A stretch of 64,000 nucleotides of DNA, from IMG/VR virus record IMGVR_UViG_3300037467_001237, positions 6,370 through 70,369 of that record. The stretch is one strand, 5' to 3'. Positions 16,676 to 52,428 of the stretch are shown piece after piece (position 1 is the stretch's first letter; each line of letters opens with the position of its first letter). Made by a program: the position numbers and the translations under genes. The notes under the pieces are model-generated. The model saw nothing but the letters and a program-made list of their open reading frames with translations, had not been told where the DNA came from and made no database searches. Source of the stretch: a virus (taxonomy: Duplodnaviria; Caudoviricetes).

Positions 16676-17627
16676 ATGCCCGTGACCCAGAGAGAGCGCC
16701 GCATCGCCGACGCTCACGACCGCCTTTGCGACACCAGCGCGACACTCTGCGCCCTCCACATCGCGGACCCTCGGGACATCACCGCCACGCTCAAGGCGGT
16801 CGACACGGCCCTCGTCAGCCTCAACCAGGCCCGAAATCTCCTCTGGCTGGCCCGTAGAAACGACGAAGTCCGCATTTTGGTCTCAGACGTTTTGAGCGCG
16901 CGCCCTCCGTGCGCCGCGGATGATGAACACCGCCTGACGAAATCAGACCTGATTTAATCCGGGCCTTTAATCGCGAGCGACCCCGTGACGCAATAACAGG
17001 GTTGCGACACCAGCCCTGCAAAATCTTCCGAGCACAAACATACATTAATAAAGGATGAGCAGATGACCCGCGAGCCGCACGGGAATCAATACCATTCCGG
17101 CATCAGCCGATGCTCAAATCGCATCGATCTGTCGTCCGACGTTTTAGAGGCGCTGGTCGAGGCGCGGGACGCGTTCGGCGCGATCCCGCTGACCACCAAC
17201 GCGATCAGCGGCGTCGCCCTGTCGGATGAGGCGCGCAAGCGCGTCCGGCGCGCCAAGCTGGCGGTCGAGCGCGCGCTGTCCGTCACGGGAGACGCCGATG
17301 CCCGGTGACGCTCGCATGCCCCTGATCCTCTGGGCCAGCCGCGTCGAGTACGGGGAGCTGATCTCCGCGCTCGGAGCCGATGACAGCTTCCACGAGATCC
17401 TGCGCCGGGTCGTGCTGGCGCACCAGGAGCGCGTCGCGAGCGTGACGTTCACGATCGCCCAAGCCGACGCCGAGCGGATCACCGACAGCCTCGACATCTC
17501 GGACTTCCCCGATGTCGCCGACCTCGTCGAGCAGATGCGCGAGCAGCTCGACTGGCTGCGGCGCAACCAGAACATCACCGCCAAGCGCTTCGCGCTGCCG
17601 AACGTCGGCACGTTCTTCGGAGATTGA
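16676..17627 (+). other. Three early hypothetical ORFs (16676-16957, 17063-17308, 17316-17627)
   Basis: Co-oriented ORFs upstream of the first pentamer array. Confidence 0.55.
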
Positions 17628-17641
17628 GGGAGGCAGCAACC

Positions 17642-17893
17642 TTGCCCACCGGCCGACGCATCGAGGTGCGCCGCCCGGTGGGCAACCACCACGGCGCAGC
17701 TCTGCGCGGCGCTCCGCGTCGCCACGCATCACTTCGCATCGCAGCGCTACGCAACGCAACGCAACGGGTGCCCAGCACCGGCCGCCTCAGAAATGGGGCG
17801 GCCCATGGTGGGCAACCACCACCGTCGCCACGCAGCGCGACGCCGCGCCCCGCATCACAACGCAACTCACCGCAACACAACGCAACGTCCTAA
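17642..17893 (+). ncRNA. CGC-NN pentamer array A (two guide-like tracts, 17690-17766 and 17821-17887) with structured module 17767-17820
   Basis: Phased units such as cac-gg cgc-ag ctc-tg cgc-gg cgc-tc cgc-gt; 54-nt module repeated at 18552 and 18672. Confidence 0.8.
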
Positions 17894-17905
17894 AGGAAGA
17901 TCATC

Positions 17906-18469
17906 ATGAAAATCGTTGAAGTGGATCTGGTCTCGACCGCCCCGTATTCGCAGTCGTACAAGCACGACACTCCGAAGAAGGACAAGGAGAGCGCCGACGA
18001 CCACGAGAAGCGCACTTGGCGGGAGAAATGCACGACTGACGCCGAAGGGAATATTCAGATCCCGGCCATGGCATTCAAGCAGGCGCTCGACAGCGTCGCG
18101 AAGCGCATGGGCATCCAGGTCCCCGGCCGCGGCAAGAACACCTACACCAAGCACTTCCTCGGCGGCGTGATCTGCGAGTCCGATGTGGCGATCGGCTATC
18201 ACAAGGACACGGTCCCAAGCATCACGATCAGCGCCAACTCTGACGGCGTCCGCGGATCGGGCAAGCGCGTATCGCGCACCTTTCCGCAGGTCCCGGAGTG
18301 GAAGGGAACCGCTCGGTTCGTCATCCTCGACGACACGGTCACGACTGAGGTCTTTGAGAAGCATCTCGTCGAGGCCGGTCGCTTCATCGGCATCGGCCGC
18401 TTCCGCCCCGAGAAGGGCGGCCTCAATGGGCGCTTCCGTCCGACCGCGTTCCGCTGGTCGGACATCTAA
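17906..18469 (+). CDS. RAMP/Cas7-like protein (Vipr-like, locus 1)
   Basis: N-terminal strand VDLVSTAPY, IPAMAFKQAL (cf. RAMP IPGSSLKGAL), Gly-rich loop AGRFIGIGRFRPEKGGLNGRF; embedded between arrays. Confidence 0.75.
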   Translation: MKIVEVDLVSTAPYSQSYKHDTPKKDKESADDHEKRTWREKCTTDAEGNIQIPAMAFKQALDSVAKRMGIQVPGRGKNTYTKHFLGGVICESDVAIGYHKDTVPSITISANSDGVRGSGKRVSRTFPQVPEWKGTARFVILDDTVTTEVFEKHLVEAGRFIGIGRFRPEKGGLNGRFRPTAFRWSDI

Positions 18470-18480
18470 ATAAGCTTCCC

Positions 18481-18799
18481 CGCGCTGCGCGACGCGACAC
18501 ACCGCAACTCGTCGCTCCGCATCGCATCGCAACGCCTCGCAACGCAACGAAGGTGCCCAGCACCAGCCGCCTCCGAAAGGGGGTGGCTCATGGTGGGCAA
18601 CCACCGAACTGCACCGCCCCGCAACGCAACGCAGCGCTACGCGCCGCAACTCACCACAACACCCCGCAACGGGTGCCCAGCACCAGCCGCCTCCGAAAGG
18701 GGGTGGCTCATGGTGGGCAACCACCGAACTGCACCGCGCAGCGCGACGCGGCGCCTCGCATCACAGTGCAACGCATCTCAACGCAACGCGACGTCCTAA
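18481..18799 (+). ncRNA. CGC-NN pentamer array B (tracts 18481-18550, 18610-18670, 18732-18793) separated by identical 54-nt modules
   Basis: 14 in-phase NN-CNC units at 18481-18550 (last unit cga); modules 18552-18605 and 18672-18725 are identical. Confidence 0.85.
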
Positions 18800-18812
18800 C
18801 CCGGAGATCTCA

Positions 18813-19310
18813 ATGTCCGAAAAGCCCACCTACCAGATGAGCGTCGACAGTCGGCTCGTCTATCAGGCTATGAAGAAGGTCGAGGTCGGCGCGTCGATCA
18901 CGCACCAGGCGCTTCAGGAGGCGACGTCCCGCAAGCTGAGCCAGATCCGGGACTCGATCAGGACTGCCATCCGGCGCCTGCGCAAGGATGACGGCATGGT
19001 CTTCGTCAGCGTCCGTGGCGTCGGCTACAAGCGCTGCACCGACGAGGACATCGTCGACAACTCCATTTCGGACACGGGCGCGGTTCGCCGCAAGGCGCGG
19101 GTCGCCGTCGAGCGGCTGACCAAGGTCCGCGACTACGCCGCCCTGCCGCCCAAGAAGCAACTCGAGCACACCACGCGCCTCTCCGTGCTCGGCGTGATCG
19201 CCAGCATGACGCGCGAACCGGCGATGGAACGGGTCCGGCAGGCTGCGAACGGTCGTGCGAGCGAACTGCCGATTGCTGAAACGCTCCGCGCATTCCAGGA
19301 GCGGGCCTGA
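18813..19310 (+). CDS. Array-associated hypothetical protein (possible winged-helix)
   Basis: Starts just after array B with GGAG RBS; ITHQALQEATSR...VSVRGVGYKR. Confidence 0.65.
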   Translation: MSEKPTYQMSVDSRLVYQAMKKVEVGASITHQALQEATSRKLSQIRDSIRTAIRRLRKDDGMVFVSVRGVGYKRCTDEDIVDNSISDTGAVRRKARVAVERLTKVRDYAALPPKKQLEHTTRLSVLGVIASMTREPAMERVRQAANGRASELPIAETLRAFQERA

Positions 19311-20242
19311 TGCCCCGCCGTGCTTGGACCGGCTCGGACCGGAAGTGGCTGGCCGAGAACTATCAGAAGCTCGGCGCCAAGGCATGCGCTGAGCATTTGG
19401 GCAACGCGACCGTCGGTGGCGTGCGCGACTTCGCTCAGAAGCACGGCTTCACCCGGCGCGCCGCGGACATCCAGTACCCCCCGTCGGACTTTGTCGACGC
19501 CGCGATCCGGCGCTGCCATGCGAGCGGCAGCGCCCAGCCGTGGACTGATGCCTCGCGGCAGGTCGGCCGCCCAGTGCGGTGGGTGCGCAAGCGCGCGGAG
19601 GCGCTGGGCCTGCGGGTCCGACGTGAGCGCTCCCCTTGGACGAAGGGCGAGACGGACTTCGTTCTCAAGCGCCTGCACTGGCCGGCTCACCGGATCGCGG
19701 CCGAGATGCAGGAGAACGGCTGGAAGCGGACGCTGCACGCCGTCCAGCACTTCCTGCGGAGCCAGGGGCTGCAAAGGAGCGATACGAGCCACATGACCGC
19801 TGAAGGGGCGGCCGCAGCGCTTGGCGTCGCCCTGTCCTCGCTGCGGCGGTGGATCGACACGGGGCTACTGATCGCCGAGCGCCGCGACCCGACCCCCGGT
19901 GGCTACAAGTCGATCGCCATCGCCGAGGAGGATCTCGCGGCCTTCATCCTCCTCAATCCCGAGCGGATCGATTTCATCAAGATCGAGCGCGCCCGGACCA
20001 AGACGTGGTTCCTCGACCTGATCTCCCGCTTTCCGAAGCCGCCATCCAAGATGGACGACTATCTGCGCCGCCAGATCGCGTCGCTGCGCACGTTCCGCCC
20101 GGACTTCGACAATGAGCGGATCGCGACGACGCTGGGCGTCGAGGAGAAGACCGTGCGCGAGGCTGTGGCTCACGCACGTGAGATCGAGCGTCAACGCGTC
20201 CTCGCGCGCGCGCAGCGTCGCGAACAGAGGGAAGCTGCGTGA
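19310..20242 (+). CDS. Multi-HTH DNA-binding protein
   Basis: Repeated W(T/S)..E..(W/F)L motifs and MTAEGAAAALGVALSSLRRWIDTGLL excisionase-like HTH. Confidence 0.6.
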   Translation: MPRRAWTGSDRKWLAENYQKLGAKACAEHLGNATVGGVRDFAQKHGFTRRAADIQYPPSDFVDAAIRRCHASGSAQPWTDASRQVGRPVRWVRKRAEALGLRVRRERSPWTKGETDFVLKRLHWPAHRIAAEMQENGWKRTLHAVQHFLRSQGLQRSDTSHMTAEGAAAALGVALSSLRRWIDTGLLIAERRDPTPGGYKSIAIAEEDLAAFILLNPERIDFIKIERARTKTWFLDLISRFPKPPSKMDDYLRRQIASLRTFRPDFDNERIATTLGVEEKTVREAVAHAREIERQRVLARAQRREQREAA

Positions 20243-50709: not shown

Positions 50710-50741
50710 GAGTGGCGTTACAAAGCAACGGTTCGGAAGCG

Positions 50742-51170
50742 GTGACCTACGAGGAGTACATCGGATCATCGGTCTGGGCCGCCCTGCGCCAACTAGCGCT
50801 GGAGCGCGACAGCTTCCGCTGCCGAGGCTGCGATGCCGCAGACAACTTAGAGGTTCACCACCGTCGCTACGGCGATCCTCTTGGAACAGAGACAGTGGAA
50901 GATCTGACCACGCTCTGCGTCGAGTGCCACAGAGCGATCACAACCATCATTCGTCGACGTAGATACGAGAAGCAGACTCACGTCGTCGCCACAGCAACAA
51001 GGCTTACGCCAAGCAGAGCGGAGATTGTCCGTGTCCTACCAGCGCTTGAAGTTCAAAATTTCGTCCGCCGCACCCCTGGTCATGCACAACGGCCGGCTAG
51101 CGAACCCGCTAGATCCAATGTCGAAGGCGCTCAAGCGCGTGTCGAGCAAGCGCGCGAAGACGGATGCTGA
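50742..51170 (+). CDS. HNH endonuclease overlapping the Vipr-like gene
   Basis: ERDSFRCRGC, LEVHH, LTTLCVECH. Confidence 0.75.
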   Translation: MTYEEYIGSSVWAALRQLALERDSFRCRGCDAADNLEVHHRRYGDPLGTETVEDLTTLCVECHRAITTIIRRRRYEKQTHVVATATRLTPSRAEIVRVLPALEVQNFVRRTPGHAQRPASEPARSNVEGAQARVEQAREDGC

Positions 51171-51600: not shown

Positions 51601-51604
51601 ATTT

Positions 51605-51852
51605 GGTGCCGTTCGGCGTGGCTCGGCAAGGCAGGGTGGGCCATGGCGAGGCAGGTCAGGGCGGGGTCCGACAAGGGAGATCGAGGAGGCGCTGCGGTGC
51701 CTTCTCGATCCGCCGATCACTGTGAACTCCCATCGCCATAAGGCGATCGGCGTCCACAGTGTGGGCGATTAGGGCATGACGTGGTCAGTCAGGGCATGTC
51801 GGGCCGAGGCGAGTTTGGCCGAGGCGCGGTGTGGCAAGGCGAGGCAAGGGCC
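51605..51852 (+). ncRNA. GGY-NN pentamer guide arrays (51605-51679, 15 units; 51773-51852, 16 units) with a structured spacer
   Basis: In-phase units such as ggcgt ggctc ggcaa ggcag ggtgg; hairpin/pseudoknot 51679-51761. Confidence 0.85.
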
Positions 51853-51891: not shown

Positions 51892-52428
51892 GCTCGCGCG
51901 CCTGCCAAGTCCAGGAGTTGAAATTGAATTTCGCCTCGCCCTTCATCTCGACTGCGACGATATACATCGCGGTTCGCATGCGATCGGACAAGGTCTCGAC
52001 GACGGACCATGGCACACCGGCCGCGCTCAATGTCATCATCTCGACGAGGCCGGGCGCCTGTGTTAGTTTTTTATTGCTTCCCGCTCGTCTTCGTATTCAA
52101 CCGGGTTAAGCGAGCGCAGTCCCTCGTTGATCGAGTCCCAGTCGTCGCCGACGCGCTGGACGATCGCCATGATCTGGGTCTTGGTCGAGCGCTTCAGGTC
52201 GGTGTCGCCGTCGATCGCTTTGACCGAGTACGCGACCAGCGCATAGGTCAGGAACGGAATGTTCTGGCTCGCCTCGGGACCGATCGCCTCGAACACGAGC
52301 ATGCGGTCGATCGGGCTGAGCCGCTTGATCTTGTAGGTCTTGCCGGTGGGGCCGACGACATCGACGGTGCCGGGCGCGGCGGACTTAACCTCGGCCGCAT
52401 CGGCGGCGTGGACGGTGACCTTAGCCAT
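51887..52428 (-). CDS. Tail assembly chaperone G (52063-52428) and -1 frameshift product GT (to 51887)
   Basis: Slippery A AAA AAC at 52072-52066 before TAA; the -1 frame runs LTQAPGLVEMMTLSAAG...WTWQAREQ. Confidence 0.8.

Follow-up and report, generated by a model that had tools for sequence, protein, structure and literature searches.

A probable VIPR system with a CGC scaffold alongside a GGY-type locus in one phage genome

The VIPR (Viral Interference Programmable Repeat) systems, a class of RNA-guided DNA recognition that has been known for only months, were described in two preprints of April–June 2026 (bioRxiv 10.64898/2026.04.26.720920; bioRxiv 10.64898/2026.04.26.720927). The published accounts distinguish seven types (I–VII), and while the canonical scaffold triplet is GGY, some of these types are stated to use a related consensus, viz. 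NNNGG, YNNNG, or NNNNG (first VIPR preprint). In the Vipr protein of SUSP1, residues D177, R138, and W178 are reported to hold G1/G2 of the repeat, with W178 stacking on the second base, and R179 is reported to hold Y3 (SUSP1 cryo-EM preprint). DNA-binding vap genes have been described for some VIPR types, and arrays interspersed with hammerhead ribozymes are published for types I and V. In the text of a later preprint (bioRxiv 10.64898/2026.10.21.760802, October 2026), in which arrays were identified by entropy periodicity, those that are associated with Vipr and have other fixed triplets are reported to form 21 clusters (6,318 sequences), the non-canonical triplets that are named being GAC/NN, CAC/NN, WGT/NN, and TGH/NN. 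According to a further preprint, satellites encode solo vrRNAs that redirect Vipr. As far as the text of this literature goes, the reading of the scaffold beyond the GGY type is unexamined.

The DNA analysed in this work (the window, 64,000 nt) belongs to a virus record in IMG/VR that is 70,369 bases long and 100% complete according to CheckV. It contains five tracts on the + strand (G1–G5; Table 1), each consisting of 12–15 in-phase pentamers in which a constant CGC triplet, occasionally present as CAC, CTC, or TGC, is followed by a variable dinucleotide (NN). Reading and phasing of these tracts confirmed what a first-pass annotation of this DNA had reported, both for their arrangement, with G1 and G2 upstream and G3–G5 downstream of an ORF of 187 aa, and for the NN strings that it had listed. 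In a blind scan of the window for period-5 tracts with three conserved columns, G1–G5 and two YNNGG tracts were the only ones recovered, with tract scores of 27–29 in comparison to a 99.9th percentile of 27. The common ending CGC(A/G)ACGTCCTAA, which had also been pointed out earlier, is seen in G2 and G5, where it is followed by an RBS and an ATG (17906 and 18813, respectively), and it is also present in one of the related loci (L068). No sigma-70 promoters or intrinsic terminators were found in a scan of positions 16900–19500.

Table 1. Positions in the window of the features of the CGC locus and of the second, GGY-type locus.
Feature	Position	Strand	Remarks
Hairpin E0, separator variant	17642..17685	+	Between upstream ORF stop codon and G1; MFE -31.6 kcal/mol, z -5.0
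vrRNA array G1	17690..17766	+	About 11 CGC-NN guide repeats, then cap CGCAA x3 CG
Separator hairpin E1	17767..17817	+	MFE -39.5 kcal/mol, z -5.7
vrRNA array G2	17821..17893	+	Last bases CGCAACGTCCTAA, directly 5' of vipr RBS
vipr, predicted 187-aa Vipr-family RAMP	17906..18469	+	phrog_4652 match, family profile, AF2, Foldseek
vrRNA array G3	18473..18549	+	Begins 4 nt past vipr stop codon
Separator hairpin E2	18552..18602	+	MFE -38 kcal/mol, z -5.3
vrRNA array G4	18605..18669	+	Phased CGC-NN pentamers
Separator hairpin E3	18674..18719	+	MFE -35.1 kcal/mol, z -5.3
vrRNA array G5	18732..18799	+	Last bases CGCGACGTCCTAA, directly 5' of next gene's RBS
Candidate vap accessory gene, 165 aa	18813..19310	+	Predicted N-terminal winged helix, then helical C-terminal part
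Second small ORF, 191 aa	51025-51600		GGY locus
Two YNNGG (GGY-NN) tracts	51603-51676, 51792-51849		After second small ORF

The ORF of 187 aa, which had earlier been called RAMP-like, is a Vipr-family RAMP as judged from profile matches and a predicted structure. It matches phrog_4652 with an E value of 3.6e-8, and a profile based upon 60 sequences of its family matches the SUSP1 Vipr (PDB 36pp_D; E 2.5e-9, residues 56–182), with the G-loops of the two proteins aligned in this match. The structure of the protein was modeled with AF2 at high confidence (pLDDT 96, pTM 0.88), and the best Foldseek matches of this model, all of which indicate a fold of the Cas7/Csm3 type, are to type VII Cas7, Csm3, and Cmr4 (E 4e-8, probability 1.0). 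The G-loop of the protein reads GIGRFRP (R165, F166, and R167), where the SUSP1 counterpart is GVGDWRP. In the profile alignment, D177, W178, and R179 of SUSP1 thus correspond to R165, F166, and R167, of which the last is retained, and R138 of the SUSP1 thumb corresponds to F126. Homologs of this protein are numerous in metagenomes (>1,400 protein clusters), and no tblastn match was detected among 50,697 isolated phage genomes. For both this protein and the 165-aa product of the adjoining gene, PADLOC gave no match and Pfam none above threshold.

The coexistence with a GGY system that had been noted earlier is borne out, as a locus with this other scaffold triplet is present on the same phage 33 kb away. 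The 191-aa ORF of this second locus also matches phrog_4652 (E 2e-55) and exhibits 39% identity to a Felixounavirus protein, in which the residues identified in the SUSP1 cryo-EM structure are found at the same numbers (H17, E71, M72, R138, C173, D177, W178, and R179). Based upon its similarity to this protein, the 191-aa ORF is a type II-like Vipr. In a pairwise comparison, the 187-aa and 191-aa proteins of the window are 31% identical over 58 aa. A second Vipr gene was not found in five related near-complete phage genomes, each of which gave one match.

To survey the family, 132 loci containing relatives of the 187-aa protein were fetched, 52 of them being taken from genomes that span very diverse phyla and the other 80 from viral contigs, and arrays were sought within 1.5 kb of the gene in the 129 loci where a usable protein was present. 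A second set of 79 loci was assembled using the more distant half of the family. Among the relatives, 337 sit on viral contigs. Period-5 arrays, all of them in the same orientation as the gene, were found within this distance in 123 of the 129 loci, and arrays were likewise present in 72 of the 79 loci of the second set. The co-segregation with the gene family that the first-pass annotation had proposed to look for among homologs was hence observed in both sets. The arrays abut the gene, the median distance being 23 nt on the start-codon side and 15 nt on the stop-codon side. In the first set the constant triplet was mostly CGC (79), followed by CTC (11), GGC (11), CAC (7), and GAC (6), with GTC, GTT, and ATT also seen, and in the second set it was GGC (43), CGC (10), GAC (8), or GTC (4). 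The triplet thus varies by clade, with a pyrimidine (C or T) as base 3 in almost all clades, and the protein family spans both the canonical GGY type (GGC sister clades) and the CGC type of the window; the published GAC and CAC types are likewise represented among the fetched relatives.

The expected difference between the fixed and the variable positions is seen in these arrays. In 223 unique CGC arrays, whose median length is 13 units, the entropy of the triplet columns is 0.34/0.84/0.36 bits (C 95%, G 83%, and C 95%), in comparison to 1.92/1.97 bits for the two NN columns, and the NN are hypervariable even between close relatives. The suggestion that this is a VIPR subtype with a different scaffold triplet is supported by the combination of a predicted Vipr-family RAMP and CGC arrays that co-segregate with it.

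The gene that follows G5 is likely a vap accessory gene, as suggested by its position and its modeled structure. Homologs of its 165-aa product were found in 57 of the 129 loci, directly downstream of vipr in 53 and directly upstream in four, in all cases on the same strand, and arrays are often present on both sides of this gene. In the AF2 model (pLDDT 94) an N-terminal winged helix is followed by long helices, and Foldseek gave only weak matches, all of them to winged-helix regulators. This predicted winged helix agrees with the DNA-binding vap genes of some VIPR types. The neighboring ORFs are phage regulators, and apart from the candidate vap gene none of the neighbors has homologs in the related loci.

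Based upon these observations, we consider it very probable that the locus is a complete VIPR system with a non-canonical scaffold, in a phage which also has a canonical GGY-type VIPR. In such a system, the locus would most likely be transcribed together with the flanking + strand genes, and the five arrays would give rise to vrRNAs, each composed of about 9–12 guide repeats of the form 5'-C-G-C-N-N-3' and a cap (CGCAA)2-3-CG. If the solved SUSP1 complex is taken as a guide, each repeat would be bound by a single Vipr protomer, with a filament assembling on the RNA; the thumb and the G-loop would sequester the constant triplet, and the displayed NN would read dsDNA, leaving out a single base after every dinucleotide. 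Such binding may silence the transcription of a competing mobile element, as in the SUSP1 case, and the winged-helix Vap would probably assist in this.

The targeting rule was examined with 197 unique guides of the family, which were compared after removal of the cap with 1.33 Mb of the fetched loci in which the arrays had been masked. Five matches of at least 90% were obtained at a skip of 1 nt. No matches of at least 90% were found in these related loci at skips of 0, 2, or 3, and none in 20 shuffles of the NN order. Gapped targets above a shuffled null, which had been predicted earlier, are therefore present in relatives within this clade. The best match, between a guide of one locus (L060) and the minus strand of another (L059), extends over 26/28 positions and ends where the cap starts, and two further matches (19/20 and 18/20) likewise end at the cap. 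All three of these are located inside long + strand ORFs of related phages, and in two of the loci (L059 and L061) the matched ORF is the gene directly 3' of vipr. The skipped base corresponds in all three cases to codon position 3 (wobble). The limitation of the matches to a 1-nt skip, together with this alignment to the wobble base, indicates that the published logic, with a 1-nt skip at the wobble base, holds in the clade containing the CGC arrays; the scaffold triplet varies within this clade and the guide logic (NN and a 1-nt skip) appears to be unchanged.

For the guides of the window itself, the gapped searches that the first-pass annotation had called for gave no convincing target, these searches being far below the profile searches of the preprint in sensitivity and the exact scans among them missing targets with 1–2 mismatches. 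Comparisons of G1–G5 with their own window at skips of 0–3 gave nothing above the NN-shuffle null, no target was found in 1.3 Mb of related loci, and guides of other loci gave nothing above the null in the window. The exact 10-NN scans of IMG/VR covered G1, G2, G3, and G5, and they yielded no match for either G1 or G2 and a single match each for G3 (L138, GC 0.32) and G5 (L139, GC 0.46). Both of these were rejected as targets, as their number is what chance expects, they do not extend beyond the pattern, and the skipped base is at codon position 1. For G1, no match was found in a scan of metagenome contigs (11 NN) or, allowing up to two mismatches, in 401 genomes from the family of a Beijerinckiaceae relative.

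The three best-matching guides in the relatives are all antisense to the target mRNA, and due to this DNA and RNA targeting are indistinguishable from these matches. The same ribonucleoprotein could in principle be directed at RNA, viz. the mRNA of a competitor, in place of dsDNA, as is the case for the Cas7 backbones of type III CRISPR, and the closest solved folds (Csm3, Cmr4, and type VII Cas7) do belong to RNA-targeting backbones. However, that three matches fall on one strand has a chance of 1 in 4 (two-sided), the homologous SUSP1 system is described as binding dsDNA on either strand, and the accessory gene is of a predicted winged-helix, DNA-binding type. We therefore regard RNA targeting as an improbable alternative to the recognition of dsDNA.

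The position of G2 and G5 allows another explanation to be considered, in which these two arrays are mainly cis-regulatory, with Vipr coating the 5' UTRs of both vipr and vap and thereby setting translation, and any guide role being secondary or absent in this phage. Both arrays stop 0–3 nt before an RBS and they share the ending described above. Additionally, in 45 of the 60 loci having an upstream array, no more than 40 nt lie between the end of this array and the vipr start codon, and the window's guides gave no targets. However, the hypervariability of the NN among close relatives is something that a UTR serving purely for protein binding would not need, guides of the relatives have significant gapped targets, and the searches with the window's own guides were of low sensitivity. 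A mainly cis-regulatory role is thus very unlikely.

Lastly, it may be asked whether the tracts are no more than common tandem repeats, whether they encode low-complexity peptides, or whether they arose by chance and play no part as RNA guides. In favor of this it may be pointed out that ORFs of 89 and 95 aa in the ORF list cross the arrays. This possibility has a negligible probability and is refuted by the co-segregation with the gene family and the column entropies; further, these are the sole such tracts in the window and they lie at both RAMP genes, the variation at two of five positions rotates through all codon positions, and since all three sense frames are stop-free in 207 of the 223 arrays, the open frames over them are compositional. 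The tracts are intergenic, and the unit number of the arrays modulo 3 is uniform.

The 3' ends of the arrays deserve separate consideration. The drift of the NN to AA toward these ends had earlier been interpreted as a property of the guides, which were described as A/T-rich and as possibly aimed at AT-rich promoters. This interpretation did not hold up, as the drift is a constant 3' cap and not part of the guide. The cap CGCAACGCAACG is found family-wide at the 3' ends of the arrays (CGCAA CGCAA CG). When the repeats are counted backwards from the 3' terminus, the two penultimate ones carry AA in 64% and 56% of the arrays, and from the fifth repeat inwards the dinucleotide entropy reaches 3.8–3.9 of the possible 4 bits. 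A similar cap (xxCAA xxCAA CGTTT and the like) ends the arrays of the CTC, GGC, and GAC clades, and it is exactly at the cap that the gapped matches in the relatives come to an end. Past the cap, no sequence conservation was found across the family. The guide part of the NN is of near maximal entropy and shows no AT bias, and AT-rich targets, which had been derived from the A-rich ends, were hence rejected.

In the CGC locus of the window, stable hairpins (E0–E3) are present after G1, G3, and G4 and in one copy before G1, with none following G2 and G5. Each of them folds into a single long hairpin (-32 to -40 kcal/mol, with z close to -5), and the basal stem UGCCCA/UGGGCA is common to all four. 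In comparison to E2 and E3, E1 contains two compensatory pair changes in the upper stem, and the upper stem of E0 is of a different sequence. As all four copies in the 70-kb virus are confined to the CGC locus, the separator was rejected as a genome-wide repeat. The separator is missing from close relatives, in which short unrelated linkers are found in its place. In one related locus (L055) the separator is an 18-nt T-rich linker, and in another (L026) it is a 51-nt hairpin with a conserved motif and covariation between copies. Rfam detected no family in positions 17000–19500 up to E = 10, and in 20 diverse homologous loci it gave nothing at the gathering score and no hammerhead. The separators were hence rejected as a ribozyme or other known RNA family, based upon these Rfam results, the absence of a hammerhead core on inspection by eye, and the single hairpin fold. 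They may serve as boundary elements between the vrRNAs, either for processing or for insulation.

The variation in the constant triplet raises the question of how it may be read by the protein. R167 (R179 in SUSP1) is conserved in at least 90% of the family sequences, and at residue 166 (W178 in SUSP1) almost all of the labelled sequences have F, Y, or W. In SUSP1, R179 holds the pyrimidine and W178 stacks on the second base, which fits with the near-invariable pyrimidine at position 3. Covariation with the triplet was examined for 151 unique proteins over 187 alignment columns. Mutual information with the middle base peaks at column 165 (0.41 bits), the second-ranking column reaching 0.26. 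With G as the middle base, residue 165 is R in 116 of 117 proteins; with A it is Q (6), F (6), V (1), S (1), or R (4), so that Q/F/V/S account for 14 of 18; and with T it is R in 12 and S/T/A in four. The pairing of Q165 with A occurs at three separate places in the tree, and four GAC arrays with R165 are exceptions to the pairing. An independent-contrast test gave 2–4 supported pairs, none of them contrary, which is below significance, and this number of pairs on supported branches is too small for a sign test to attain 0.05. For the first base (C vs. G), the covarying columns follow a deep split in the tree and are uninformative. That residue 165 helps in reading the middle base is therefore to be viewed as a lead from sequence covariation and not as a result.

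The residue differences also make it plausible, at the level of sequence, that each of the two Vipr proteins of this phage loads only its own arrays, as D177, R138, and W178 of SUSP1 are represented by R165, F126, and F166 in the 187-aa protein. We tentatively put forward the possibility, which we hold with less than even confidence, that the triplet is a tunable "address" that phages have diversified against cross-loading by co-resident or competing VIPR systems, that the phage described here carries an orthogonal pair, and that the lineage-specific hairpins are sites for a host RNase which replace ribozymes. Under such a scheme, position 165 may read the middle base and the invariant Arg/aromatic pair the pyrimidine. 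The redirection of Vipr by solo vrRNAs of satellites provides a reason why scaffolds might diversify, and diversification would also block these vrRNAs. If the triplet does act as an address, a simple rule (R–G, Q–A) would be available for building orthogonal scaffolds.

With respect to known systems, the locus shares with the Cas7 backbone of class 1 CRISPR (Csm3, Cmr4, and type VII Cas7) the predicted RAMP fold and, in the proposed mechanism, one protomer per fixed RNA step with periodic base flipping. However, the period is 5 nt in place of 6 nt, the guide is non-contiguous, and no repeat-spacer array, other cas genes, or adaptation module are present. As the 64-kb window contains no repeats of CRISPR size and the neighbors are phage regulators, a class 1 CRISPR-Cas system was rejected. 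The hammerhead ribozymes that lie between the vrRNAs of types I and V have no counterpart at the CGC locus either, where Rfam was negative and a single hairpin is seen.

The closest similarity is to the type II VIPR of Escherichia phage SUSP1 and of a Pseudomonas fulva prophage, with which the locus has in common a small Vipr RAMP (about 190 aa) possessing an RRM core, a thumb, and a G-loop (PDB 36pp), sense-strand pentamer arrays of 9–16 units on both sides of the gene, a constant triplet with hypervariable NN, an adjoining accessory DNA-binding gene (predicted in the present case), the phage setting, and matches with a 1-nt skip in which the wobble base is skipped, the latter being seen here in relatives from the clade. 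It differs from these systems in having CGC in place of GGY, RFR in place of DWR in the G-loop, and F126 in place of R138 in the thumb, and the SUSP1 Vipr and the 187-aa protein are alignable by sequence only over the C-terminal two thirds. Further, the SUSP1 vrRNAs possess a conserved pseudoknotted 3' tail, whereas the CGC arrays end with the constant (CGCAA)n cap and show no clear counterpart of the tail, and they are parted by a hairpin of 45–50 nt.

Although CGC does not conform to the canonical triplet GGY, it fits the published alternative YNNNG when this is read as C-NN-C-G. The locus also resembles the non-canonical arrays reported in the text of bioRxiv 10.64898/2026.10.21.760802 in having fixed-trinucleotide/NN pentamers other than GGY near a Vipr-like fold. 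The earlier remark of not being aware of a description of this triplet is thus borne out in part: CGC itself is not spelled out, the string being absent from the text, figures aside, of that preprint and of the first VIPR preprint, but YNNNG as well as the non-canonical GAC and CAC are already published. VIPR, including its non-canonical scaffolds, is hence already known, and the CGC locus adds a member and further detail and no new mechanism. The presence of two differently scaffolded systems in one phage, the hairpin separators, and the link between residue 165 and the middle base do not appear in the text of the preprints, figures aside. The CGC locus provides a clean and compact example of a very large and mostly uncultured clade, and together with the GGY system on the same complete phage genome it constitutes a direct test bed for scaffold orthogonality, which is of importance both for guide hijacking between mobile elements and for the multiplexed use of VIPR as a tool.

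Relatives of the 187-aa Vipr protein accompanied by arrays were detected in a contig binned to an archaeon (L050; Nanoarchaeia MAG) and in contigs binned to candidate-phyla-radiation bacteria (L022, L023, and L028; Peribacteria and Saccharibacteria MAGs), the array types in these loci being ATT-NN, CGC-NN, and GAC-NN. Their presence in both kinds of bins indicates a very wide host range for this clade. Within it, four proteins (L153, L194, L200, and L216) have R aligned to the G-loop residue 165, yet clear GAC-NN arrays adjoin them, and they constitute exceptions to the pairing of R with a G in the middle of the constant triplet.

The linkers between arrays also vary among the lineages. Each linker in L026 contains a hairpin, the stem of which shows covariation across the copies, and the hairpin precedes a conserved motif, ATGGGCGACTGTCC. 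Such linkers represent a second type of structured separator, unrelated to the hairpins at the CGC-NN locus. The T-rich linker of L055 comes after a CGTTT ending, and similar linkers are present in L043 and L025; all of these could be terminator-like or processing signals.

Arrays with conserved linkers and an ORF overlapping the canonical vipr gene
Feature	Position	Remarks
Eight CTC-NN arrays	L026:3166-3900	51-52-nt linkers between arrays
Seven CGC-NN arrays	L055:3713-4215	joined by conserved 18-nt T-rich linker CTTTTGGCGATTTATC..
ORF with HNH-type Cys/His motif	window 50712-51170	overlaps start of type II-like vipr (51025) in a different frame

Two guides from a single viral contig, L060, matched the minus strands of closely related contigs, one (L060:2224-2308) at 26/28 positions in L059:3878-3928 and the other (L060:2867-2931) at 19/20 in L061:4454-4492. 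Both matches fall in the ~500-aa gene directly downstream of vipr. This pattern looks like sibling phages in conflict, with the guides directed against the gene next to the VIPR locus of the rival. In the canonical GGY-NN system, positions 51773-51847 of the window, in the array region, were paired as a guide with a possible target at 52123-52164. This pair resembles a self-target, in contrast to the VIPR preprint, according to which there are no self-hits at or above 80%.
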